A stretch of DNA of 64,000 nucleotides from Gemmatimonadota bacterium (GCA_002712305.1 PATE01000063.1:54984-118983), one strand, 5' to 3'. Numbered from the stretch's first letter, positions 8,241 through 61,339 are shown. Notes: a model not told the origin generated them from the letters alone. Translations and numbers: made by a program.

Positions 8241-11200
8241 TCAAACGACTCTGGTGATCGAAATCTGGCATTCAGTGCCATTTACATCCCACGTGCGAGA
8301 CGCAGTCACATCTTCCGGTGCAGCACCTACATGTGTTTCGGCAGCCAAGGTCTCACCGGCCACATACGTCTCGTGAGCACTCATCGACTGAGCGACCGGG
8401 TCGGGTCCCTCGATCCACAACTCGATCCGATCGGCCACATCGAGGCCGGCATCCTTGCGCATGTTTTGCACACGATTCACCAACTCTCGAGCAAATCCCT
8501 CGAGACGCAGATCGTCAGTGACCTGAACATCGAGACCGACGCACAGATTCTCGTCTACAGCGACCACGACGTCTTCTCGTTCACGGCGTTGAATATCCAC
8601 ATCTTCGATGCCGATGTCGCCATCAGCCACATCGAGCCGGCCACCACGAGCCAGACCTTGCACCTGTTCGGCACTCAGAGAGGAGACGAATGCGCCTACC
8701 TCTTTCATTCGTTTGCCAAAGCGAGGACCGAGGGAACGGAAGTTCGGCTTGTACGACACCTCACTGATCTCGGCTTCGTCTTTTACGAGTACGACTTCCT
8801 TGATATTCAACTCGTCGGCGATCAGACCGGAAACCTGCGTCAGTTCCTCACGACTGTGTTCGTCTGGTGGTAGCAGAAACACACGCTGCAAGGGCTGGCG
8901 CGTCTTGAGGTTGTGCTTGCTGCGCAGGGCACGACCCAAGGTGACGGCTCGTGTGGCCAGCTCCATCTGTTCTTCGAGCTCGCCGTCTCGCAGAGTCTCG
9001 TCGGCCAGTGGCATATCACACAGATGCACACTCTCTGGTGGGCCATCGGTGCCATTCTGCGTCGCCTCCACCCCGGCGGCACCTGCCTGGGGAGCGACCA
9101 GATTTTGATAGATCGCCTCGGTGACGAAGGGTAGAACCGGTGCCAGGGCGCGGATAAACGTGGTCAGTACCTGATACAACGTCGCATACGCAGAGGCCTT
9201 GTCCGCATCGTCATCCGACTTCCAGAATCGACGACGGCTACGTCGGATATACCAGTTCGTCAGTTTCTCGACGAAGCCGACCATGGCCGGCACCGTGCGA
9301 TAGAGGCGGTAGGCCTCCATCTCCTGGTTGATGTTGTGCAGCAAGGTCTGCAACTCGGACAGGATCCAACGATCCAGACGATGGGCGACCGGGGCAGAGG
9401 TTCCCTGAGCTGGATCCCAACCGTCGATCCGAGCATAGGTGACGAAGAAACTGTAGGCATTCCACAGTGGCAGAATGACATCACGCAGACTCTGCTTGAT
9501 GCCGTCCTCACTGAGCCTCAACTCTTCTCCCTTCATGGAGGGCGAGTTGAGAAGATACAGTCGCAGGGCGTCCGCCCCATAGGTCTCCAACATCTCCGAC
9601 GGATCGGGGTAGTTCTTCAGGCGCTTGCTGAGCTTGCGGCCGTCTTCAGCCAGCAGCATACCTCCGACGATGCAGTTCTTGAATGCAGGTCCATCAAACA
9701 GCGCCGCCGCGAGGATTGTCAACGTGTAGAACCAACCGCGTGTCTGATCCAGGTTTTCGGAAATGAAATCGGCGGGAAAACTCGCTTCGAAGTCTTCTCG
9801 TGGGCCAAAGGGATAATGGCTCTGCGCATAGGGCATGGAGCCCGACTCGAACCAGCAATCCAGGACCTCCGGCACGCGACGCAGCACACCATCACCGGAT
9901 GGGGCGGGAATCTCCAGATCATCGATACAGTGTTTGTGAAGATCGTCGACGTCTTTACCCGTCAGTTCACTCAATTGCTGACGGCTGCCGACACAGACGG
10001 CCTCGCCCGTCTCCTCGTTGCGCCAGATGGGCAGGGGTGTCCCCCAGTAGCGATTTCGACTGATTGCCCAGTCACGGGCTCCTTCCAGCCACTTACCGAA
10101 CCGACCGTCACGGATGTGTTCTGGGATCCACCAGATCTGCTGATTGGCGGCCAGCATCTTGTCTTTCACCTCTCCCTCTACCTTGACAAACCACGTCGAG
10201 ATCGTGCGATAGATGAGGGGGGAGTCGCAGCGCCAGCAGAACGGATACGAGTGCATGAGCGAGGTCTCGGCAAACAACTGCCCAGATGCGCGCAGGCGTC
10301 GGATGATCGGTGTATCCACGTCCTTTACGAACTCGCCTTCGAAATCACTTACTTCGTCGGTGAATCGACAATCGGCATCGATGGGGCAGACAACGGGAAG
10401 ATTCTCCCGAAGACCGAGTTGGTAATCGTCCTCACCAAAGCCTGGTGCGATATGGACGATGCCCGTGCCGTCCTCGGTGGATACGAAGTCGGCCTGCACA
10501 ACTTTGAACGCACCCTCTTCGGCGAGGGAGCTGAAGTTGTCGAACAGCGGCTCATATCGCAGACCGATCAGTTCATCGACACTGATGGGATCGACGTGAT
10601 CGATCTCATTCTCTCGCTTGCGGAACACCGCTTCCAAACGAGCCTTGGCCAGGATCAGTTCCTCGCCTTCGACAGTGGTTACGCAGACGTATTCGACATC
10701 TGGCCCGACGGCCAAACCCATGTTGGATGGCAAGGTCCAGGGCGTCGTCGTCCAGGCGAGCAATGAGCGTCTTTCAGTGTCACGCACGCGAAAACGGACG
10801 GTGATGGAAGGGTCCTGCGTGTCCTGGTAGCCCTGATTGACTTCGAAGTTGGACAGGGGCGTGGCACATCTGGGACAGTAGGCGAGCGACTTATAACCCT
10901 CGTAGATCAGTCCCTTGTCCCACAGAGACTGGAAAACCCACCACACGGACTCCATGAAGTCCACGTCCATCGTCCGATACTGACGATCCCAATCGACCCA
11001 ACGCCCGAGGCGCTGGATCAATTCCTCCCATTCGCTGGTATAGCGCAGGACGACGGAACGGCAGAATTCGTTGAAACGAGGGATGCCGTATTCGAGGATG
11101 TCGCGCCGGGTCTTCAGGCCAAGCTGCTGTTCGGCCTCGTTCTCTACCGGCAGACCATGGCAGTCCCAGCCCCACCGGCGCTCGACACGGTAGCCCCGCA

Positions 11201-49243: not shown

Positions 49244-49690
49244 TCAAGTGCGTCCGGTGGAGCCGAAACCTCTCTCGCCTCGTCGCGTGTCTCCCAACTC
49301 ATCGACCAGCTCCCATTCTGCTCGGGTCACCGGCGCGAACACGAGTTGGGCGATGCGCTCACCCGGTTCGATCACCTGCTCTTGTCCAGATAGATTCACC
49401 AGGATGACCCCCACGTCGCCCCGGTAGTCGGCATCGATCGTGCCCGGCGCATTGAGCACCGTGAGTCCACGTTTGAGGGCCAAACCGCTGCGGGGCCGTA
49501 CCTGACCTTCGTATCCGGTGGGAATCTCAATCTTCAAGCCCGAAGCAATCAACGCACGCTCGCCCGCAGCCAGGGTCAGCGCCTCGGCGAGATGCGCACG
49601 CAGATCCATGCCCGCACTGTCGATCGTTTCGTAGGCGGGCAGGGCTCCTTCGGTCTCTTGTACAACACGCACACGAATTACTGTGCTCAT
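49244..49690 (-). CDS. dut: dUTP diphosphatase
   Basis: Trimmed to the ATG at 49690. AGMDLRA, RSGLALKRG, GTIDADYRG, C-terminal RGERGFGSTG motifs. Confidence 0.9.
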   Translation of the reverse strand: MSTVIRVRVVQETEGALPAYETIDSAGMDLRAHLAEALTLAAGERALIASGLKIEIPTGYEGQVRPRSGLALKRGLTVLNAPGTIDADYRGDVGVILVNLSGQEQVIEPGERIAQLVFAPVTRAEWELVDELGDTRRGERGFGSTGRT

Positions 49691-50901
49691 CGCGAAGCCA
49701 CGTGCTGACTGTATTCGACTCGCCAACGAGCGCGCAGTGCCGACACATAGGTGGCGGCGAGCACATAGAAGATGGAGGCGAATAGACTCAAGGTAGCGGC
49801 GATGAGGACCATCAGCAGACGGCGCGGCCCTGCGGGCTTCTCCGGTACCATGGCGTGATCGAGTACCTGAATCGTAGACGTCGTGTTGCTCGCCTCGATA
49901 AGGGATTCGGCCTTCTGCTCCAACAACATCTTCATCAATGCGCCCTGGACAAGCACGTCCTTCTCGATGTTCGCATACTCCTGCGATACGGAGGGGATGT
50001 CGCGCAACGGCAGGAACAGATTCTCTGAACCGAAGACCTGAGAGATAGGCGAGTCGCCGACGGGGTCCATCACCGATGCATCGCCATCGCGCAGATAGCG
50101 TAAAGCCAACTGTCGATTCTGCGCTTCCTTTTGTAATCGGCGGACGTCTGGGTGTGACTCGCCAAAACCGGACTGCATCAGACTGAGTCGTTTGATGATC
50201 AGTTCCATGAACGCCATCTGCATTTCGGCGGCTGTGCGGATCGTCGCCCGCGCCTGGTCCGCCAAGGAGATCGCGTTGTGCTCTTCCTGGAAGACCTGCA
50301 ACTGCTGCATCGCGTCCTGCAGCTTCACGTCCTCGCGCTCCTCTAACAGCGAGATGAACTCAAAGCGTTCCTGGGCCGATTCGTTCGACAACAGCTGATT
50401 GGTCGTGTCCAGATAGATGACATACTGATTGGCCATGTCCGTGGCTTGCTGAGGATCACGATCGGTGACGGAGATCATGATCGTGCCCTCTTCGCTTTTG
50501 CCGATCTCCGTTCGTCGTTCGAGTGCCTCCAATGCATCTTCGATGCCTTCGGTCTTGTATACTTTGGTCAGGTCGAATCGATCCACCATTTTTCGCCGCA
50601 TGGTGGGACTCTTGAGAATGGCAACGAAGATGTCCGCAGGTGTGCCCTTCTCTCCCAATCGCAGAGACGGAATCGGAAGGGCGGATAACAGCTCCGCGAA
50701 GCCGAATCCCTTCTTCGCTTCCTTCGGGGGCAACAGCTGGACAACACTCTTGTATTCGTCTTCCAGCAACAGGCTCAGGGCGCCCGTGGTGACGCTGACG
50801 ATGAGGGTTCCCACGACGATCATCCGCCACCCGGAGACGAGGGCGGTAATCAGATCGAGAATGCTGACGTCTTGGCGTTCGGTGCTCTGTGTCATGGTCA
50901 A
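49687..50901 (-). CDS. polysaccharide chain-length determinant / co-polymerase (Wzz/GumC-like PCP, no kinase domain)
   Basis: N- and C-terminal TM helices flanking a coiled-coil periplasmic domain; 4-nt overlaps with both neighbouring genes. Confidence 0.7.
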   Translation of the reverse strand: MTMTQSTERQDVSILDLITALVSGWRMIVVGTLIVSVTTGALSLLLEDEYKSVVQLLPPKEAKKGFGFAELLSALPIPSLRLGEKGTPADIFVAILKSPTMRRKMVDRFDLTKVYKTEGIEDALEALERRTEIGKSEEGTIMISVTDRDPQQATDMANQYVIYLDTTNQLLSNESAQERFEFISLLEEREDVKLQDAMQQLQVFQEEHNAISLADQARATIRTAAEMQMAFMELIIKRLSLMQSGFGESHPDVRRLQKEAQNRQLALRYLRDGDASVMDPVGDSPISQVFGSENLFLPLRDIPSVSQEYANIEKDVLVQGALMKMLLEQKAESLIEASNTTSTIQVLDHAMVPEKPAGPRRLLMVLIAATLSLFASIFYVLAATYVSALRARWRVEYSQHVASR

Positions 50902-52607
50902 ATCGCGCGCACGAGGAGGATGAGGGTCAGCGCTTCAGCGGTGGTACGCATCGTGCCCTGCACGAGGGCCCACCAGTCACGGTATTCTTTTTCGGGGACC
51001 CAGATCTCGTCACCCGGTAAAACGATCAGATTCGCATTGTAGGCTTCTCGCTGACCCGTACGGGCGCGGATCAAACGCGCACCGCCCTTGTCGGCGTCAA
51101 AGGAGTAACCACCGGCTCTTTCGAGATAGTACGCGGCGCGGCGCCCCTCTTCGAAATTGAGGAGGCCCGGCTTGAGGAACTGGCCACTCATGCTCACCGT
51201 GGCTCGTTGCTGCGGCACGTGAATCACGTCCCCGCCTTTGAGCAGGATGTTCTGTGTTTCGTCGCCCTCAAACAACAGCTGAAAGTCGATGGTGAGGCGA
51301 CCCTTCTCTTCACGCTGTTTTGTCTTCAGGTATGCACGCTCTTCCGGAATCAGGTCCGCCAGACCTGTGGCGGCGACGATGTCCTGAAGTCGAGCAAGTT
51401 CGGGATCCTGGATCGCTCGATACTTGGTCCGAATCACGCGTGCCTCCAGGAGGTTGGCTCGGTTCGTTAAACCTCCGGCCTGCTCGATGAAATCCCGAAT
51501 GCGGGTCTTGCCCTCGACAATTCGGTAGCGGCCGGTATAAAGAATCTCGCCGTGGGCATGCACGGTCGGCGTCTGCTGCCAGTCAGAGCGGGAGCGAATG
51601 AACAGCATGTCCTTCGGCTGCAGAGGCACGTGGGCAATGTCGGCACTTGTGTGTAACCGGTCACTATCCTCCGTCACCAGCGGAACCACGGTTATCGAAT
51701 CCGTGCCGGCGACGAAGCGCCAGATCTCCGCGTGGGCGAGGGGCGCACTGCCCGCAACGCCTTGGGCAAGACGCAACAGGTCGCCTACCGTGTCTCCGGC
51801 GCGGAATTCCTGGGAGCCCTCTGCGTTCACGGTACCGTAAACGAAGATCTGATGTTTGCGAAAGCCAACGTGAACGACATCCCCCATCCGCACGTAGGGA
51901 TTCTGTCTGATATCACCGGTAGACAGGAACATGGCCAGATCCACCTCCTCCGCCGACCCATCCTGATGCAGGATCTTCACCGACCGGCGTGCCGTGGGCT
52001 GTTTCGCCACCTTACCGTCGTCCAGAAAACCACCGGCCTTCTCGATGAGGTCAGAGACGCGCGTGACGGGGGAGATAACGTGCGCTCTCTCACTTTCGAG
52101 GACGGCGCCTGTCACATAGGCGGTAAAGAAACGCATGCTCTGCAGCGTCAGTGAGATTTCCACACTCGGATACTTCTCATGGGCCACGTCGCCGATCATC
52201 TGCTTTGCCGTGGCGAGCGTCTTCCCAGCGACCTTAAATGTGCCGATTGTCGGTACCAGGGCCTGTCCCTCGGGATTCACCTCGAACCGAATGTCCTGGT
52301 CGAATTCGCCCCAGATATACAGTTGCAACACATCGCCTGGACCGACGATGTACGTATCTGGGTCGATTTCGCGATCCTGAGCGATCCGCAATCGCTGAAC
52401 ACCCTCGTCCTCCGGCAGGCGCAGCCGGCTGTCCATGCCTTCTGGCATGAAGCCCGGTGTCTTGGTGCCGGGAATGCGTCGGATCTCGGCTTCTTCACGC
52501 TCGCTTTCATCGACGAGCTCTTCCAATTCTTGCGCACCAACGGGGCTGGCGAGGGTGAACAGCACCCCGCAGCCGGCGGCTATGGCGCCGATCCATCGTC
52601 GTCTCAC
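50898..52607 (-). CDS. polysaccharide export protein (Wza-like, Poly_export + SLBB domains)
   Basis: Signal peptide; IVGPGDVLQLYIWGE Poly_export motif; several SLBB-like repeats. Confidence 0.8.
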   Translation of the reverse strand: MRRRWIGAIAAGCGVLFTLASPVGAQELEELVDESEREEAEIRRIPGTKTPGFMPEGMDSRLRLPEDEGVQRLRIAQDREIDPDTYIVGPGDVLQLYIWGEFDQDIRFEVNPEGQALVPTIGTFKVAGKTLATAKQMIGDVAHEKYPSVEISLTLQSMRFFTAYVTGAVLESERAHVISPVTRVSDLIEKAGGFLDDGKVAKQPTARRSVKILHQDGSAEEVDLAMFLSTGDIRQNPYVRMGDVVHVGFRKHQIFVYGTVNAEGSQEFRAGDTVGDLLRLAQGVAGSAPLAHAEIWRFVAGTDSITVVPLVTEDSDRLHTSADIAHVPLQPKDMLFIRSRSDWQQTPTVHAHGEILYTGRYRIVEGKTRIRDFIEQAGGLTNRANLLEARVIRTKYRAIQDPELARLQDIVAATGLADLIPEERAYLKTKQREEKGRLTIDFQLLFEGDETQNILLKGGDVIHVPQQRATVSMSGQFLKPGLLNFEEGRRAAYYLERAGGYSFDADKGGARLIRARTGQREAYNANLIVLPGDEIWVPEKEYRDWWALVQGTMRTTAEALTLILLVRAI

Positions 52608-53617
52608 TTCAGTCGCTCTCCATACTGACGTTTGTAGTAGGCCTGATAGTCATCGCTCGCTTTGATGTCGCGCCACCAGCCTTCATTGTCCACATACCAC
52701 TGAATCGTCCGACGCATCGATTCGGTTACATCTACCTCCGGTTGCCAACCCAATTCGCGAACCTTGGATGAATCGAGGGCGTATCGTTGGTCGTGTCCGG
52801 CGCGATCCTCAACGAACTGCAGCAAGGACTCGGGTTTGCCCAGTTGCTCCAGAATCGCGCGTGCCACTCCGATGCCATTGGCGTCGTTTTCACCCCCCAC
52901 ATTGTAGGCCTCACCGGCGACGCCGTCATGGTACACCAGGTCGATGGCGCTGCAGTGATCGTCCACATACAGATGATCTCGCACCTGAAGCCCGTTGCCA
53001 TAGACCGGCAGTGGTTGATCGTCGATGGCATTGGTGATATATAGGGGGACTCGCTTTTCGGGATACTGGTAGGGCCCAATGTTGTTCGAGGCCCGAGTTA
53101 CCACCGTCTCCAGCCCGTGGGTGATGTGATACGCACGCACGAGCATCTCTGCGCTCGCTTTGCTGGCCGAGTAGGGATTACGCGGCTCAAGAGGGAAATC
53201 CTCGTCCCACGCACCCTCTGCCAACGAACCGTAGACCTCATCGGTGCTGATCTGATGGAACCGGCCAATGTCGTGTTTACGTGCCGCTTCCAACAGAACG
53301 TAGGTCCCATACACATCGGTCTGGACGAACTCTGCACCGCCAAAGATCGAACGATCGACGTGACTCTCAGCGGCGAAATTGACGATGCCGTCACACTCCG
53401 CGACGAGGGCGTCCACGACCTCCACATCGCAGATATCACCATGGACGAAGCGGTATCGTTCGTTCTGATCGAAGTCTTTCAGATTAGCCGGATTTCCGGC
53501 GTAGGTCAGCTTGTCAAGATTGACGATGCGATCGGTGGGATACCGGTTGAGGAAGTAGCGGACGAAATTGCTGCCGATAAAGCCGCTACCACCGGTGACC
53601 AAAACAGTCCTGCTCAA
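52604..53617 (-). CDS. rfbB: dTDP-glucose 4,6-dehydratase
   Basis: VLVTGGSGFIGSNFV, YSASKASAEMLVRAY (YxxxK), DHLYVDDH. Confidence 0.9.
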   Translation of the reverse strand: MSRTVLVTGGSGFIGSNFVRYFLNRYPTDRIVNLDKLTYAGNPANLKDFDQNERYRFVHGDICDVEVVDALVAECDGIVNFAAESHVDRSIFGGAEFVQTDVYGTYVLLEAARKHDIGRFHQISTDEVYGSLAEGAWDEDFPLEPRNPYSASKASAEMLVRAYHITHGLETVVTRASNNIGPYQYPEKRVPLYITNAIDDQPLPVYGNGLQVRDHLYVDDHCSAIDLVYHDGVAGEAYNVGGENDANGIGVARAILEQLGKPESLLQFVEDRAGHDQRYALDSSKVRELGWQPEVDVTESMRRTIQWYVDNEGWWRDIKASDDYQAYYKRQYGERLK

Positions 53618-53648
53618 GACGATCTCCTCACTCAGGTTCGTGCGTCGC

Positions 53649-55022
53649 TTACGTGCGGATGGGGGAGAATCGCCCCGGGATCATCCAGGACGAAGTGTCA
53701 TCGGATTCACCAGGGCTGCGGGAGACACGTCCGACACTGACATACTCAAAACCGAGACGGACCATTTCATGGGGGTCGTAGATGTTGCGGCAATCGAGAA
53801 ACCGATTTGTTGCGGCACAATCGAGGAGCCGGGGCAGATCCATATTGCGGAACTCATTCCACTCGGTCATCAGCACGACGGCATCTGCATCCTGGGCGGC
53901 CGTATAGGGATCCTCACAACAGATGAGGTCCGGATGCTCCTGTTTGCTGTGCTCCATCGCCGCCGGGTCATAGGCTTTCACCGTCGCTCCCGCCTCGATC
54001 AACGAAGCGACCATCTCCAATGCGGGTGCCTCGCGGATATCGTCTGTATCCGGTTTGAAGGACAGCCCCAGCAAACAGATCGTCTTGTTGGAGAAGTCAC
54101 CAACGAGATGGTGCAGTTTGTCGACCATTCGCCGTCGTTGTCGAACATTGCTCGTGTCGATGGCTTCGATCAATGGAGCGTCGACCTCGCCTCGACGGGC
54201 TGTAGCGGCCAGACCTTGAACATCCTTTGGAAAACAGCTGCCTCCATATCCAGCCCCTGCGAACAGGTTGCGTGGACCGATTCGTTCGTCGAGTCCCATA
54301 CCACGCGCTACGGCGGTCACGTCGGCACCGTATGCTTCGCAGACACTGGCGATCTCATTGATGAAGGAGATCTTCGCCGCCAACAGAGCATTCGAGGCGT
54401 ATTTGATCATTTCAGCCGACTGGATGCCCGTCAACACCATGGGCGTGTCGTTCTGATACAGTGGCCGATACACGTCGACGACGGCTTCCATGGCGCGCTG
54501 ACTTCCCGCCCCGATCACGACACGATCGGGGTGCATGAAATCATCGATGGCCGATCCCTCACGAAGGAATTCTGGGTTGGACACAACATCGAAATCGGCG
54601 TCAGGGCGCACCTTGCGGATGATCTGCTCGACTTCGTCCCCCGTTCCGACGGGCACCGTGCTTTTGTTGACGACGATCTTGAAGTCCTCCATGTACTGGC
54701 CGATGGTCCGGGCCGCATTGTGCACGAAGGACATGTCCACCTCGCCTGATGGCAGGGAAGGTGTGCCGACGCAGATGAAGACGATTTCCGATGACTGGAT
54801 GGCAAAGGCGACATCGGAGGAGAAACTGAGCCGTCCGCTTTCACGATTGCGGTCGACCAATTCCTCCAGTCCAGGTTCATAGATGGGCACCTCGCCCGAC
54901 CGCAGCAACTCGACGCGTGTCTCGTCGATGTCGACGGCGACCACAGCGTTGCCGAAGTCAGCCAAGCAGGCACCTGAGACGAGCCCGACATAGCCGGTCC
55001 CCATCACACAGATCCGCCTCAC
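53649..55022 (-). CDS. ugd: UDP-glucose 6-dehydrogenase
   Basis: MRRICVMGTGYVGLVSGACLA; catalytic GGSCFPKD; 457 aa. Confidence 0.9.
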   Translation of the reverse strand: MRRICVMGTGYVGLVSGACLADFGNAVVAVDIDETRVELLRSGEVPIYEPGLEELVDRNRESGRLSFSSDVAFAIQSSEIVFICVGTPSLPSGEVDMSFVHNAARTIGQYMEDFKIVVNKSTVPVGTGDEVEQIIRKVRPDADFDVVSNPEFLREGSAIDDFMHPDRVVIGAGSQRAMEAVVDVYRPLYQNDTPMVLTGIQSAEMIKYASNALLAAKISFINEIASVCEAYGADVTAVARGMGLDERIGPRNLFAGAGYGGSCFPKDVQGLAATARRGEVDAPLIEAIDTSNVRQRRRMVDKLHHLVGDFSNKTICLLGLSFKPDTDDIREAPALEMVASLIEAGATVKAYDPAAMEHSKQEHPDLICCEDPYTAAQDADAVVLMTEWNEFRNMDLPRLLDCAATNRFLDCRNIYDPHEMVRLGFEYVSVGRVSRSPGESDDTSSWMIPGRFSPIRT

Positions 55023-57107: not shown

Positions 57108-58112
57108 GTGTCTGCCCGAGCGTCAAACCTGCGCGTGGCGGAGCTGCGATCTGAGTGGTCGCCTCGCTGCAATCAGGGATGGATCTACGTCGACCAGATC
57201 ACGACAGAGAACGGGGGTGATCCCGCGATCGATTTCTACGTCGAACGGTATCCCCATTCGGATCGAGAGACGTGGCTCGAGCGTTTCGTCGCCGGACAGA
57301 TACGCAGCGATGAGACCGTCTGTTCAGCAGACATGACCCTGCAGGCGGGGATGACCCTCCGCTACCACCGCCCCGGTTGGGACGAGCCGGCTGCTCCACG
57401 AGATTTTCGTCTGCTCCACGAGGACGACGATCTGGTTGCCGTGGACAAGCCGTCAGGATTGCAGGTATTGCCCGCGGCGATGTTCCTCGAAAACACGCTG
57501 CTCCATGTCGTTCGCGAACGAATAGGTGCCGGAGTGGATCCCGTCCACCGGCTGGGTCGTGGAACTTCTGGCATCGTCGTGTTTGCCAGAACGGATCGAG
57601 CTCGGCGCCAACTTTCTCAGGACCTGAGCGAAGGGCGTATGAAGAAACGGTATGTCGCCCTCGTGCAGGGCAATCCAGCGCCCTCGTTCTCGGTGGACCA
57701 GGCCATCGGTCTGGTGGACTATCCAGGATTCGGCCGTGTCTTTGCCGCTGTGGATACGGGCAAACCATCTATTTCGCATGTGAGAGTGATCGAGCCACGT
57801 CCGGAAACGGATGAAGCTCTGGTAGAGGTGGAGATCCCAACGGGCAGGCCCCATCAGATCCGTATTCATTTGGCTGCCGCCGGACATCCCCTCGTGGGGG
57901 AGCCGCTCTATGAAAGGGGTGGCCATCCGCCGACCGTGGAGCCCAACGATCGTCCGCCGCTACCTGGGGACCTCGGATATCACCTGCACGCTATGCAGGT
58001 TGGTTTTACACACCCCACGTCGAAAGACGCCATGCTGATCGAGTGCGAACCACCCGACATTCTGCGACCAAGGTCAGCGGCAGAACCGCCCCCGGACCAC
58101 GAGCAGGTCTAG
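57108..58112 (+). CDS. RluA family pseudouridine synthase
   Basis: GTG start; LVAVDKPSGL, HRLGRGTSGIVVFAR, RPHQIRIHL motifs. Confidence 0.8.
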   Translation: MSARASNLRVAELRSEWSPRCNQGWIYVDQITTENGGDPAIDFYVERYPHSDRETWLERFVAGQIRSDETVCSADMTLQAGMTLRYHRPGWDEPAAPRDFRLLHEDDDLVAVDKPSGLQVLPAAMFLENTLLHVVRERIGAGVDPVHRLGRGTSGIVVFARTDRARRQLSQDLSEGRMKKRYVALVQGNPAPSFSVDQAIGLVDYPGFGRVFAAVDTGKPSISHVRVIEPRPETDEALVEVEIPTGRPHQIRIHLAAAGHPLVGEPLYERGGHPPTVEPNDRPPLPGDLGYHLHAMQVGFTHPTSKDAMLIECEPPDILRPRSAAEPPPDHEQV

Positions 58113-59071
58113 ACCTCCCGTTCGGAGGTGACCTTGAGTTCCAATTTCTTGATCCGGGTCAGGACATCTTCCATCAGGGCGCGGTTGGTCGCGATTAAAT
58201 CGGCGACGACGCCCGTGAGGAACATCTGAAAGCCGGCCAGCAACAGAACCGCCGCCAAGATCACTGACTGAATGTGTAGATCGCCTTCATCGGTGAGCAG
58301 GAGGTAGTAGAGAAACCGGATACCAAGGGCAACACCCGCCGCGAAGGTGATTGCGCCGCAGGCCGAAAAGATCTTCAACGCCTTGTAGCGGGCATAGGTG
58401 CGCAGGGAAATCGAACCCGATTTGAGCACGAACTCCCCCACATTCGAAAACAGACGTGATTCGCGTGCCTTCGGATTGGTTCGGATCGGTACCGCCACCA
58501 CCGCCCAGTGGTCCTGGCCCGCCTGAACCACGTGTTCGGCCGTGTGGTCGAAGTCGGTGAACATGGAGATCTTCAGAGCCGTCTCTCGCGTATAGGCACG
58601 AAAGCCTGAGGCTACATCGGGGATCTGCAGCCCGCCCAGCCGACTGATCACACGACTACCATAGGTCTGTAGCGCTCGTTTCAACAACGAGAAGTGACCG
58701 ATCTCGCCGGTGCGGCGATCACCGATCACAAGGTCGGCCCGCTGCTCCAGAATCGGTTGAACGAGCGTTTCTACATCGCCCCCGAAGTACTGGTTGTCGC
58801 CATCAGTGTTGATAATGATGTCAGCACCCAGGCGCAGGGCAGTGTCGAAGCCAGCCTTGAAGGCATGGCCCAGGCCGCGATTCTGCGCGAAGCGTACGAT
58901 GTGATCGGCGCCATTCTCGCGGGCGACTTCGGACGTACGGTCTGTCGATCCGTCGTCGATGATGAGGATCTCCACCGCATCGATGCCTTCGATCTGGCGA
59001 GGGATGTCCGCCATCGTGGCGCCAAGGGTCTCCTCTTCATTGAGACAGGGGATCTGCACGATCAGTTTCAT
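58109..59071 (-). CDS. family-2 glycosyltransferase, polyprenyl-phosphate sugar transferase type (DPM1/ArnC-like)
   Basis: VQIPCLNEE...ILIIDDGSTDRT...TDGDNQ; C-terminal TM helices as in GtrB/ArnC. Confidence 0.8.
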   Translation of the reverse strand: MKLIVQIPCLNEEETLGATMADIPRQIEGIDAVEILIIDDGSTDRTSEVARENGADHIVRFAQNRGLGHAFKAGFDTALRLGADIIINTDGDNQYFGGDVETLVQPILEQRADLVIGDRRTGEIGHFSLLKRALQTYGSRVISRLGGLQIPDVASGFRAYTRETALKISMFTDFDHTAEHVVQAGQDHWAVVAVPIRTNPKARESRLFSNVGEFVLKSGSISLRTYARYKALKIFSACGAITFAAGVALGIRFLYYLLLTDEGDLHIQSVILAAVLLLAGFQMFLTGVVADLIATNRALMEDVLTRIKKLELKVTSEREV

Positions 59072-59074
59072 GGA

Positions 59075-59947
59075 CTATCCCCAGCTTTCCTGTTTGATCT
59101 GCCGCTTGTCGAATCCGAGTTCGTGCAGAATCTGGATCATCGTTTCGACGAATTTCGGCGCCGGCTCCTCGCCTCGTTCGCGCGCTTCCTTCCGCTCCCA
59201 CGGCAGAACACCAGGACCACAGCAGTAGACGAGCGTTCGATCCAGATCCTTCACGTAGGATTTGATCAACTCGGCGTCGAGGCGACCCTTACGGGAAGCT
59301 GGCTCAATCTGATGGGGATCTTCGCGTGTCAGGCTATGGAGAACCGTCAACTGTTCGGAATGCGCTGCGGCCAAGGCGGCAAACTGGTCGTAGTAGAAGA
59401 TGTCAGAGCGTGTCTTGCTGCTATAGAGCAGAACATGGTGCAAATCATCACCCCGATGAATCGAGTCTTTGATCAGCCCGAAGTTCGGCACGATGCCGGA
59501 CCCCGCGCACAGATGAAGGACCGTGTCTGCCTTCTGGCCCGCGTCTTGTGGAATCGCATAGGGGCCCGTGAACCCGCTGATGGTCAATGTCGTTCCGGGT
59601 GGGCAGTGACGACTCAATGGGGGCGACAACACAGGAGGGTACTTGGACTCACCCGGCCAGAATCGCTCTTCCTTTACCGTGATCAGGATGTGCGGCTCGT
59701 GTGGCGCGGACCCCATAGAGTAGGCACGCGGTTTCTCCCGAGTCCCCTTCACCTCTTCCAAGTAGGCGATCACCTGTTCGAGAAATCCGAACTGATGTGG
59801 ATCGATGGTGATGAATTGACCCGCCTTGTAGTCGCGCTCTTCGTCACCGATGTCGAGCAGGAGACTGGCCGCATCGTGCGTCTCCTCGCGCACGTCGGCG
59901 ACAACAGCCTGGATCTCGCGCACCTTGCGGCCCCGTTCTTCAGCCAT
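59075..59947 (-). CDS. ferredoxin-NADP reductase family FAD/NAD(P)-binding oxidoreductase
   Basis: RAYSMGS (RxYS FAD motif), HLCAGSGIVP (GxGxxP NAD motif), C-terminal CGP. Confidence 0.75.
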   Translation of the reverse strand: MAEERGRKVREIQAVVADVREETHDAASLLLDIGDEERDYKAGQFITIDPHQFGFLEQVIAYLEEVKGTREKPRAYSMGSAPHEPHILITVKEERFWPGESKYPPVLSPPLSRHCPPGTTLTISGFTGPYAIPQDAGQKADTVLHLCAGSGIVPNFGLIKDSIHRGDDLHHVLLYSSKTRSDIFYYDQFAALAAAHSEQLTVLHSLTREDPHQIEPASRKGRLDAELIKSYVKDLDRTLVYCCGPGVLPWERKEARERGEEPAPKFVETMIQILHELGFDKRQIKQESWG

Positions 59948-60959
59948 CGATCAGATCACCGAAGGGTGGGTGGGTGCCCCTTCCAGATGCCTCACGCAGG
60001 TGACGGCGGATTGTCATCATCGTTGGCTCGTCGCTGAGGGGAAACTGGAGCAGCTCGAGATCGGCGCTGATCGGATCTCGGGCCGCCAGAATCAGGCGGA
60101 AGAACAGGTGATGCATATCCAGCGCACAGCGGGACTCCGACGAGGGCATGGCTGCACCAAGTTCACCAAGAATAGACTGCTTTGAGGTCAGGGAAACACG
60201 AGCGCAGTCGAGGGGCGAAGTATACTGAAGGGCTCGTCTTTCGGTCCAGTCCCAACCTAACTTACCCAGCTCCAGGAACGCGATTCGTTGACCTGCAGGA
60301 CACATCACATTGCGAGGCTGATAGTCTGTGGTCCCCAGTGTCGCCGGTCGGGCCGCCAGCAGGCCATGGAGGGTCCGAAGGCTTGTCGCCAACCGATCGA
60401 AACACGACATGGCGTCCCATATCCGAAGCGTCTTGCCCAGGCCCTCGAGGGCCACCTCTTCTATCGCCCGCCAGCGGTCGGTCAGGTCCTCGTGATGGCC
60501 CCCCAGGACAACACGATTCTGCCAATTCGGCTGCGTCGCCAACGTCTCTTCGATGAGTAGCAATTCGGCGATGACCCGGCTGACACATCCCACGGGCATC
60601 TGCCCAAAGCACACGTCGAGGAACGTTCGATCGCCGAGATACTCCATGAAAATGAACTGTCCCTCAGGGTCGATACCAAAAGGAACCGGGACATGACATC
60701 CCGCTTGACGCAGAGCTCGATTGACTTCGAACTCGACCTGCAGCAGATCGAAGTTCTCGCCGCGTGTGAGCAAGCCGAAGAATTGGTGCTTGGCCACAAC
60801 GCGGCTGCCGTCGGAAAGCCGCAGGAGCCAAACATCGGGAGCAATGGAGCTGAGTTCGCGGACATCGGGTCGCCCGGGTACGATGGACGACGTCACCTCA
60901 CGTAGATGGGCCTCTACGCTCTGGGACCACTGTGCATCACTGACGACGGGATGCGTCAA
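59940..60959 (-). CDS. APH-like phosphotransferase / protein-kinase-fold protein
   Basis: 339 aa; kinase-like fold with Brenner-like HGDL.. region and a DxxxxN-like catalytic loop (DYQPRNVM). Possibly a small-molecule or sugar kinase. Confidence 0.6.
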   Translation of the reverse strand: MTHPVVSDAQWSQSVEAHLREVTSSIVPGRPDVRELSSIAPDVWLLRLSDGSRVVAKHQFFGLLTRGENFDLLQVEFEVNRALRQAGCHVPVPFGIDPEGQFIFMEYLGDRTFLDVCFGQMPVGCVSRVIAELLLIEETLATQPNWQNRVVLGGHHEDLTDRWRAIEEVALEGLGKTLRIWDAMSCFDRLATSLRTLHGLLAARPATLGTTDYQPRNVMCPAGQRIAFLELGKLGWDWTERRALQYTSPLDCARVSLTSKQSILGELGAAMPSSESRCALDMHHLFFRLILAARDPISADLELLQFPLSDEPTMMTIRRHLREASGRGTHPPFGDLIDG

Positions 60960-60964
60960 CGGGC

Positions 60965-61339
60965 TCAGGCTGGATCGAAGAGGATGACCTGGGCGACGAC
61001 CTTGCCAGCCTGACAGTTGAAGTCGGGGTTGTCGTTCATCGCAAGAAAGAGGGTTCCACTGTGATCGGAGATGATGTCGTGGCGGGCACCCACTGCGAAA
61101 ACCGGACCGTCACCGATGCGGGCAACGAGGCATCCCACGTTAGCGCCAGGCAGCAGATATCCATCCCCTGCAGCGTGCTTGTAGACGCCATCCGCCCCAC
61201 ACCATGCGATCTGATCACGCATGTCAGGTGACCAGACCTCTTCGACGTCGAATACGACGCGCTGGCCTTCCCTCACACTGATGAGGGTGTCCTGCCACGT
61301 CGGACTTGGGCGTATGGTTCGCAGAATCGTGAGTGCCAT
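60965..61339 (-). CDS. PA-IL (LecA)-like lectin-domain protein
   Basis: 124 aa; pattern ...AGDGYLLPGANVGCLVARIGDGPVFAVGARHDI...FLAMNDNP..F..N.G resembles P. aeruginosa LecA. No signal peptide. Confidence 0.5.
   Translation of the reverse strand: MALTILRTIRPSPTWQDTLISVREGQRVVFDVEEVWSPDMRDQIAWCGADGVYKHAAGDGYLLPGANVGCLVARIGDGPVFAVGARHDIISDHSGTLFLAMNDNPDFNCQAGKVVAQVILFDPA

Follow-up and report, generated by a model that had tools for sequence, protein, structure and literature searches.

The 64,000-nt stretch of DNA analysed here (the window), from the genome of an uncultured member of Latescibacterota, carries four closely packed genes, A to D, on its minus strand. An initial annotation read them as one sugar-activation and lipid-carrier glycosylation module, which raises the question of whether they encode a single pathway. 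The reading that we favour, and to which we give about an even chance, is that they form a Latescibacterota-specific, co-transcribed cluster of two evolutionarily separable modules, A-B and C-D.

Table 1. Features of the four-gene cluster, with predicted products (positions counted from the first nucleotide of the window)
Feature	Coordinates	Strand	Details
Gene A: PA-IL/LecA-fold protein	60965..61339	-	124 aa, ATG start, soluble, stand-alone
Gene B: orphan APH/eukaryotic-like-kinase-fold phosphotransferase	59940..60959	-	339 aa, TTG start
Gene C: FNR-type flavoprotein reductase module	59075..59947	-	290 aa, ATG start
Gene D: polyprenyl-phosphate-type GT2 (DPM1/ArnC/GtrB/AglJ-like)	58109..59071	-	320 aa, ATG start
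B/C overlap ATGGCTGA	59940..59947	-	8 nt, read from sequence

All four ORFs had been placed exactly in the initial annotation (Table 1). Read from the sequence, the A/B and C/D junctions are gaps of 5 and 3 nt (+5 and +3), and the B/C junction is an 8-nt overlap (-8), the TGA stop of B lying inside the ATGGCTGA of C. Each gene has many conserved homologues, and annotations of public MAGs include almost identical proteins (P0001 and P0037 at 99%, P0157 at 100%), indicating that A-D are real genes and not chance ORFs. A long ORF on the plus strand (58694..60037) is an antisense shadow of C and D, in DNA of 59% GC. Scanning for promoter and terminator consensus sequences gave counts close to shuffle expectation. 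The junctions are tight here and recur as such across relatives, and A-B-C-D is probably a single co-transcribed unit, as had been proposed.

Gene A had been described as encoding a LecA-like lectin. Its protein lacks a signal peptide and has the PA-IL beta-sandwich fold, but a Pfam search with it gave no PA-IL match even at E<=10, and an hhalign comparison of its profile with LecA returned a probability of 2.9%. The A profile retrieves 1116 proteins, and sampled matches pass the Pfam PA-IL cut-off of 22.5 bits (P0282 at 85 bits, P0281 at 53, P0288 at 50 and P0365 at 46), arguing for homology of A to the PA-IL family via intermediate sequences. Apart from this transitive profile homology, A shares with the PA-IL/LecA lectins (PF07828; P. 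aeruginosa LecA, Photorhabdus PllA and the N-domain of Enterobacter EclA) a length of ~121-124 aa and the absence of a signal peptide. Two motifs are invariant in A, WSPDM..Q..WCGADG.Y and AMN(D/E)xP..N(N/C)QAGK, and the Ca2+ loop of LecA (N-D-x-P...N-N-x-G) aligns with N-(D/E)-x-P...N-(N/C)-Q-x-G: Asp100 falls on Asp/Glu103, Asn107 on Cys109 (Asn in most relatives) and Asn108 on the invariant Gln110. We take Asp100, Asn107 and Asn108 to be the Ca2+ ligands of LecA and His50 and Gln53 its galactose ligands. Conservation of the His50 and Gln53 positions was not found in the alignment of A with LecA; since the galactose ligands are not kept, carbohydrate binding by A is an assumption. Thus the fold and the family relationship stood, whereas the Pfam assignment did not.

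Other features set A apart from LecA-type lectins. Identity is only 18-20%, the A loop is two residues shorter, and A is exceptionally conserved (~70% across a phylum) and in every case translationally coupled to the gene of a kinase; we know of no such coupling for LecA-type lectins. The majority of its other relatives, unlike A, are secreted multi-repeat proteins. In the model of A, pLDDT was <50 at residues 38-51, the most conserved loop, and the ligand site is poorly modelled. Distant stand-alone A-like proteins adjoin genes for NitT/TauT-type ABC transporters, not kinases, suggesting that A-type proteins may bind non-sugar small molecules.

Gene B had been assigned to the APH-fold kinases and likened more narrowly to anomeric sugar 1-kinases of the AmgK/NahK type. 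The fold assignment agreed with the structural matches: a kinase fold was found with the catalytic Lys, Glu and Asp-x4-Asn and a metal-binding carboxylate, the residues being Lys57 (VAKHQ), Glu76, Asp212/Asn217 (TDYQPxN) and Glu230. The spacing of Asp212-Asn217-Glu230 (5 and 13) matches that of the catalytic and metal-binding residues of APH enzymes, D190/N195/D208 in APH(3')-IIIa. A Pfam search with the window protein, the check that had been suggested, gave no APH (PF01636) match even at E<=10; against a cut-off of 23.2 bits, the homologues P0035 and P0016 scored 36.5 and 28.3 bits and the L002 orthologue 22.1. With these catalytic motifs retained, B is predicted to be a catalytically competent kinase. 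Like APH-fold small-molecule kinases, it has the beta3 Lys, the alphaC Glu, Asp-x4-Asn and a carboxylate 13 residues on, and some members of its family exceed the Pfam APH threshold. It differs from them in showing 9-14% identity to any solved kinase, with no nearest subfamily and with the window protein under every HMM threshold; in the replacement of the catalytic-loop His (TDY for HGD) and of the DFG-type Asp (mostly by Glu); and in a unique, family-specific invariant motif, K-x-GWDW-x-ERR-xx-QY.

The narrower comparison was not supported. The best structural matches of B include MTR kinase, GlcN kinase, maltokinase and NahK, but NahK ranked only 11th, amid many small-molecule and peptide kinases, antibiotic kinases included. 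No AmgK or NahK profile matched B, which showed no preference for, or specific similarity to, anomeric sugar kinases. AmgK is paired with the nucleotidyltransferase MurU, whereas none adjoins B; neither a nucleotidyltransferase nor a phosphorylase gene turned up in or beside the cluster in the window, or in the related loci.

For gene D, the earlier call of a DPM1/ArnC-like GT2 was upheld. Pfam Glycos_transf_2 matched at 5.5e-22, the acidic motifs DDGSTD and TDGDNQ are present, and hydropathy indicated a C-terminal pair of TM helices, at about residues 231-259 and 263-295, like those of GtrB and ArnC; the L001 orthologue has a faint GT2_TM_C match. In the PDB, D matched DPMS (5mlz, 2e-10), ArnC (7e-8) and GtrB (2.6e-5). 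In NCBIfam it matched AglJ (1.8e-34), PpgS (5.5e-21) and Dol-P-hexose transferase (4.9e-18), all under the equivalog cut-offs, the best (AglJ) at 119.5 bits against 325 and the others further under theirs. D shares the GT2 catalytic domain with polyprenyl-phosphate glycosyltransferases (Pyrococcus DPMS, ArnC, GtrB, AglJ and PpgS), and its best solved and curated matches are polyprenyl-phosphate sugar synthases throughout. These comparisons of sequence and structure point to a GT2 of the polyprenyl-phosphate sugar synthase type (DPM1/ArnC/GtrB/AglJ-like). In contrast to those enzymes, D has no flippase (GtrA-like) or GT-C transferase gene adjoining it, and coupling to an FNR-type gene is unique to it.

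If D makes a lipid-linked sugar, B might be a WaaP/KdkA-type glycolipid or glycan kinase acting on that sugar, with A recognising the glycan. Two B homologues gave weak Kdo-kinase matches (E ~0.13), and an anionic substrate carrying phosphate would fit the Arg/Lys-rich invariant motif of B. However, the matches to soluble small-molecule kinases are much stronger, A-B is kept even where no D gene adjoins it, and no membrane-association feature was seen in B by hydropathy. We consider this explanation very unlikely.

Gene C had been taken for an FNR-like reductase, by analogy with the E3-type reductases of deoxysugar pathways. The FNR-type module was confirmed by matches to Pfam NAD_binding_1 (2.5e-12) and to the FAD/NAD domain of NqrF in the PDB (2e-4), together with the motifs RAYS (FAD), GSGIVP and CGP (NAD(P)H) and a C-terminal ESWG read from the translation; of the two Pfam families suggested as a check, FAD_binding_6 gave no match. 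NAD_binding_1, RxYS, GxGxxP/CGP and the two-domain overall length are shared with FNR reductase modules (the PaaE, Hmp, Hcr and NqrF domains, and E3/AscD of 3,6-dideoxyhexose synthesis). In NCBIfam, the PaaE, Hmp and Hcr modules gave weak matches, all far under the cut-offs. Unlike the named reductases, C carries no [2Fe-2S], haem or other partner domain: Pfam and NCBIfam gave no Fe-S or haem domain match, and the translation no Cys cluster. An E3/AscD-type deoxysugar reductase was ruled out, since the N-terminal plant-type [2Fe-2S] ferredoxin domain is absent, and with it the deoxysugar analogy fails. Lacking a partner domain and scoring under every equivalog cut-off, C is not assignable to any named reductase.

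Synteny was compared in 68 related loci, nearly all from Latescibacterota. A and B were adjacent in 67 of 67 loci, with a junction of -4 or -1 nt in 54 of them (usually an ATGA overlap), and the C-D junction was -4 to +4 nt in 35 of 38. All four genes were co-localised on the same strand in 39 of 66 loci (59%). C was absent with D present in six loci and D absent with C present in five, and A-B(-DUF5069) occurred without C-D in 14 genomes of at least three lineages, in unrelated genomic contexts and including an Opitutales MAG. The suggested cross-genome check thus showed co-localisation of all four in part of the loci, with C and D separately dispensable and A-B the sole invariant unit; the loci are from essentially one phylum, so that co-localisation could be partly inherited gene order. 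In the same genomes, identity was 70% for A and 72% (the median across the phylum) for D, against 45% for MurD, 60% for ArgC and 36% for B, the greater conservation of A and D than of MurD and ArgC indicating strong purifying selection.

Taken to its limit, inherited gene order would make the clustering functionally meaningless, four unrelated processes held together in one phylum. Every locus is indeed of Latescibacterota or closely related origin, synteny extends to the flanking murD, argC and tatD as well, and C, D and DUF5069 can each be missing. Yet the invariant A-B pair, with its frequent stop/start overlap, relocates as a unit, the C-D junctions are tight as well, and the M42 and rluA flanks have been lost far more freely; a meaningless cluster seems to us highly improbable.

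A single linear pathway would have B as a sugar-1-kinase leading to an NDP-sugar, C modifying it reductively, D loading it onto polyprenyl phosphate, and A as a sugar-binding accessory. The four-gene loci with their tight junctions, the sugar kinases among B's top structural matches, the lectin fold of A and the GT2 type of D speak for it, and both the 8-nt B/C overlap in the window and the occurrence of the full set in 59% of loci are compatible with it. On the other hand, D-type GT2s use NDP-sugars, and neither the cluster nor the conserved region around it contains a nucleotidyltransferase, which leaves the linking step without a gene; C is not of the E3/AscD type, B shows no specific similarity to anomeric sugar kinases, and C and D can be lost singly or together. 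The fold calls behind the module first proposed largely stand, whereas the pathway drawn from them is possible but speculative, and in our judgement unlikely.

In 60 of 67 loci a DUF5069 gene occupies the B-C interval or the place after B; in 37 it is directly between B and C, and its stop is contiguous with the C start. In 47 loci it has an in-frame TGA aligned with Cys and a conserved downstream hairpin. DUF5069 is a candidate selenoprotein. tblastn found none in the 64-kb window, where it is cleanly absent at the B/C overlap; the window's clade has lost it. A-B-DUF5069 and C could be imagined as a thiol/selenol redox or stress system, with C reducing DUF5069, D an unrelated neighbour and the window version degenerate. 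The Sec/Cys protein directly before C fits this, as does the lack of a redox partner domain in C. But 22 loci have DUF5069 and no C, and seven (the window included) have C and no DUF5069; C is coupled more tightly and consistently to D, nothing ties redox chemistry to lectin folds or APH kinases, and A, B, C and D are intact and conserved in the window although it has no DUF5069. We regard such a system as improbable.

In the favoured two-module reading, module 1 would comprise A and B, plus the DUF5069 Sec/Cys protein in most relatives. A would bind or present a conserved, probably carbohydrate-like cytoplasmic ligand, and B, translationally coupled to it and presumably its physical or functional partner, would use ATP to phosphorylate either this ligand or some small molecule or glycan closely related to it. 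Module 2 would comprise the translationally coupled C and D. Membrane-anchored D, working at the cytoplasmic face with a putative donor and acceptor of its own, would make a lipid-linked monosaccharide that serves as donor in envelope glycosylation, and C would be an NAD(P)H:flavin reductase whose electrons must go to a separate, putative partner. Both modules would lie in one operon in the window's lineage. The same strand carries, 3-9 kb downstream, genes for a UDP-glucose dehydrogenase, an NDP-sugar dehydratase/epimerase, a Wza-like protein and Wzz, a block also found in L001 and L071; the position of the cluster between murD and this block makes a shared cell-envelope theme plausible.

A bolder possibility, which we think rather unlikely though less so than the alternatives above, is that A-B(-DUF5069) is an undescribed phylum-wide system in which a cytoplasmic LecA-fold protein of extreme conservation serves as ligand-recognition partner of an orphan APH-fold kinase and which, in Latescibacterota, feeds or controls reductase-dependent polyprenyl-phosphate glycosylation, with DUF5069 as a new selenoprotein family. 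If true, this would be a new route to envelope-glycan modification.

The four minus-strand ORFs at 58109–61339, encoding a PA-IL/LecA-fold protein (A), an APH-fold kinase (B), an FNR-type reductase (C) and a polyprenyl-phosphate GT2 (D), were recovered with exactly the coordinates of the initial annotation. The sequence read in the window had a 5-nt gap at the A/B junction, an 8-nt overlap (ATGGCTGA, 59940–59947) between B and C, and a 3-nt gap between C and D. Near-identical proteins had been called in public MAGs (P0001, P0037 and P0157) and the homologue family of each protein was deep, indicating that A–D were genuine genes. The antisense ORF (see the table) is a shadow ORF of the sort often met in GC-rich DNA, with no coding evidence. 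Simple promoter and terminator consensus matches over the cluster were no better than those of shuffled sequences, and neither the cluster nor the candidate SECIS element described below was matched in Rfam. A known anti-phage defence system was rejected, since PADLOC gave no match.

Coordinates of the cluster, a nearby block and related genes (L numbers, loci in other genomes or contigs)
Feature	Location	Strand	Remarks
Gene A	window 61339..60965	minus	124 aa
Gene B	window 60959..59940	minus	339 aa, TTG start
Gene C	window 59947..59075	minus	290 aa
Gene D	window 59071..58109	minus	320 aa
Antisense ORF	window 58694..60037	plus	447 aa, opposite C and D
Polysaccharide block	window 49687-55022	minus	3-9 kb downstream of D
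DUF5069, TGA-type	L017:8442-8708		TGA 8580-8582
DUF5069, TGA-type	L002:9475-9760; L071:6733-6996; also L029, L045		
DUF5069, Cys-type	L005:9520-9885; L007:8309-8665		
Distant A-like genes	L072:4298-4669; L073:1063-1425; L074:962-1324; L075:192-560		~50% identical to A

A pattern scan of one genome per species gave 65 related loci, nearly all from MAGs labelled Latescibacterota or Gemmatimonadetes, plus one from Opitutales and one from Planctomycetota; contig look-ups added six more. Architectures were scored in 68 non-duplicate loci, in which all stop-to-stop ORFs were searched with the window proteins. The commonest order was murD(-) [M42(-)] A B DUF5069 C D [rluA(-)] argC. The A-B-DUF5069-C-D set was found in 32 of the 68 loci, A-B-C-D in seven (the window's own clade only), A-B-DUF5069-D in six, A-B-DUF5069-C in five, and A-B-DUF5069 alone in 16 (two in the murD context, 14 in unrelated contexts); L046 and L062 were too short to score. 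A and B were adjacent in 67/67 loci, with an ATGA overlap in 41 and a 1-nt overlap in 13 of these, and the C-to-D junction lay within -4 to +4 nt in 35/38 loci. Co-localisation of the four genes elsewhere thus held for A-B but not throughout for C and D, each of which was missing from some loci.

In the A+B tree the architecture variants were clade-structured, yet recurrent in origin: A-B-DUF5069 stood alone in at least three lineages, and C, D and DUF5069 had been lost separately. DUF5069 was cleanly lost between B and C in the window, L001, L006, L011, L013–L015 and L059, and the sister clade (L007–L009, L012 and L035) had kept a Cys-type DUF5069 and lost D. Median identities to the window proteins over 28 complete loci were 70% (A), 36% (B), 54% (C), 72% (D), 45% (MurD) and 60% (ArgC), A being better conserved than MurD. 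The analysis supported a probably co-transcribed cluster made up of two pairs, A-B and C-D, each coupled internally and separable from the other. A-B was an invariant unit that relocates between genomic contexts as a block, and C and D were frequent A-B neighbours, each individually dispensable. That the clustering is mere inherited gene order is very unlikely.

In L005 (8001–16372) and L040 (Opitutales MAG), A-B-DUF5069 with a full-length Cys-type DUF5069 (121 aa) was directly followed by a Planctomycetes/Verrucomicrobia-type microcompartment locus (genes for PTAC, BMC-H, acetate kinase, EutN, aldehyde dehydrogenase and class II aldolase). Since the A protein there was 70% identical to Latescibacterota A, the module was probably transferred horizontally. 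Many cluster-bearing MAGs (among L006–L070) were labelled Gemmatimonadetes or Gemmatimonadaceae, yet in the A+B tree their A-B-C-D loci were interspersed among genomes of Latescibacterota, suggesting that the taxonomic labels of these MAGs are inconsistent in public records.

Neither A nor B was matched in Pfam or NCBIfam, even at E ≤ 10, and searches of PDB sequences with both profiles gave insignificant kinase or cupin matches only. The A-family profile retrieved 1116 proteins from a 1.8-billion-protein library, and those sampled were true PA-IL proteins by Pfam, scoring as high as 85 bits, by which transitive homology A is a divergent member of the PA-IL superfamily; the PA-IL-like call of the initial annotation stood in this indirect form, but no direct family match accompanied it. 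A was a soluble stand-alone domain; most of its profile relatives were long and repeat-containing, with a hydrophobic N-terminus. A profile alignment that fell short of significance paired the LecA Ca2+ loop (N-D-x-P...N-N) with an invariant N-(D/E)-x-P...N-(N/C)-Q of A; the galactose-ligand positions of LecA showed no conservation. Model confidence was low for WSPDM..Q..WCGADG, which is A's most conserved loop. Secreted lectins and adhesins are the main known carriers of the LecA fold, whereas A is cytoplasmic and its gene is in every case translationally coupled to a kinase gene. As to A-B fusions, a B-like domain was found in 0/149 remote A-like representatives. A metagenome scan with P0279, a distant stand-alone A-like protein, placed genes of this type beside a NitT/TauT-type ABC transporter, with no kinase, FNR, GT2 or DUF5069 gene nearby. 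The A-like genes of L072–L075 were directly upstream of genes for a BPD_transp_1 permease, an NMT1/THI5-like binding protein and an ATPase. Such ABC-transporter neighbours hint that small molecules other than sugars may be what A-type proteins handle.

The APH fold proposed for B was supported by structural matches to a variety of kinases, among them a putative APH (3csv), corramycin phosphotransferase, MTR kinase, glucosamine kinase, maltokinase, NahK, homoserine kinase, amicoumacin kinase and lanthipeptide kinase, with no single closest one, and by two B-family members (P0035 and P0016) above the Pfam APH threshold. For substrate class, NCBIfam over the whole B family gave weak Bud32-like N-lobe matches only. 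Lys57, Glu76, Asp212 and Asn217 were invariant and Glu230 nearly invariant in the family, in a spacing that fits the APH catalytic and metal-binding residues, so that B is probably an active kinase. An invariant, B-family-specific motif, K-x-GWDW-x-ERR-xx-QY, lay C-terminal to the metal-binding position. We give little credence to B being a WaaP/KdkA-like glycolipid kinase.

C contained an NAD_binding_1 domain (2.5e-12) and the motifs RAYS, GSGIVP and CGP, resembled, weakly but over its full length, the PaaE, Hmp, Hcr and NqrF reductase modules, and had no Fe-S or haem domain. The FNR-type assignment was therefore kept, but an E3/AscD-type deoxysugar reductase was rejected because the Fe-S domain was missing. 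A homologue search was made for C-D pairs outside the phylum or in A-B-alone genomes; the best 120 of 818 matches were all Latescibacterota-type and at least 52% identical. D had a GT2 domain (5.5e-22) and two C-terminal TM helices. Its best curated and solved matches were all polyprenyl-phosphate sugar synthases (AglJ, PpgS, Dol-P-hexose transferase, DPMS, ArnC and GtrB), in agreement with the DPM1/ArnC-like call, the matches to AglJ, PpgS, Dol-P-hexose transferase and others being every one below the equivalog cut-off.

The initial annotation had joined these enzymes in one module for sugar activation, modification and lipid-carrier glycosylation. Read as a linear pathway from B through an NDP-sugar to C and D, this is unlikely: the required nucleotidyltransferase was absent from the cluster, its flanks and the related loci, C is not the E3-type reductase on which the pathway depends, and B would have to be preferentially related to anomeric kinases, whereas the structure search showed no such preference. 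The single sugar activation and lipid-carrier module is thus corrected; it was plausible-looking, but its key connecting enzyme is missing and the cluster is composite.

The gene usually found between B and C matched Pfam PF16798 (DUF5069, ~50 bits) and had no copy in the whole 64-kb window. The only solved relative is 3OMD, an uncharacterised protein, and a literature search found DUF5069 in no paper and nothing relevant on clusters that combine a LecA-like gene with a kinase gene, or on selenoproteins of Latescibacterota. DUF5069 had an in-frame TGA in 47 loci and an aligned Cys in 14 orthologues, within the motif DY(I/V)(Y/F)P-C/U-(G/P/A)AD, and coding conservation persisted past the TGA. 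Twelve nt downstream of the TGA was a 7-bp hairpin, C(G/A)CUUCC-UGGA-GGAAG(C/U)G, with pairing in 96.6% of cells; one pair alternated between G.U, A-U and G-C, and two-sided covariation was not found. The synonymous sites of the hairpin's Phe-Leu-Glu-Glu codons hardly varied among TGA-type genes, and among these alone, and the hairpin was missing from most Cys-type genes. At the sequence level, the TGA and hairpin bear the hallmarks of a bacterial Sec/Cys pair accompanied by a SECIS element, making DUF5069 a candidate selenoprotein, which gene callers cut down to 45 aa. The Cys-type gene at L028:8453-8764 retained a SECIS-like hairpin (CGCTTCC-TACA-GGAAGTG), perhaps the trace of a recent Sec-to-Cys conversion. 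That the cluster is a redox module built around DUF5069 and C is improbable.

The polysaccharide block encoded a Wzz/GNVR chain-length protein, a Wza-like exporter with SLBB domains, an NDP-sugar 4,6-dehydratase/epimerase and a UDP-glucose 6-dehydrogenase; rluA(+), argC and tatD lay between D and the block, and the same neighbourhood was seen in L001 and L071. The nearby murD, NDP-sugar and Wza/Wzz genes are circumstantially in line with an envelope theme. Because A-B is invariant and C and D are dispensable, we favour, with about an even chance of being right, a binder-kinase pair sharing one ligand in the same operon as C-D. A, the lectin-fold binder, and B would act on the common ligand, and the flavin reductase C and glycosyltransferase D would serve envelope glycosylation.

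A, B, C and D all belong to superfamilies already known; to judge from our searches, neither the A-B and C-D couplings nor the composite cluster has been described before. Latescibacterota (WS3) are uncultured. The pairing of C with D suggests that a redox-dependent step is tied to lipid-carrier glycosylation; we know of no precedent for this among GtrB-, ArnC- and DPM1-type enzymes, and the pair offers a testable entry point. A LecA fold in the cytoplasm, in a protein more conserved than MurD and coupled in translation to a kinase throughout, is an unusual use of the fold, and if A and B act together, they would represent a new kind of kinase system, guided by a lectin and acting on small molecules or glycans.
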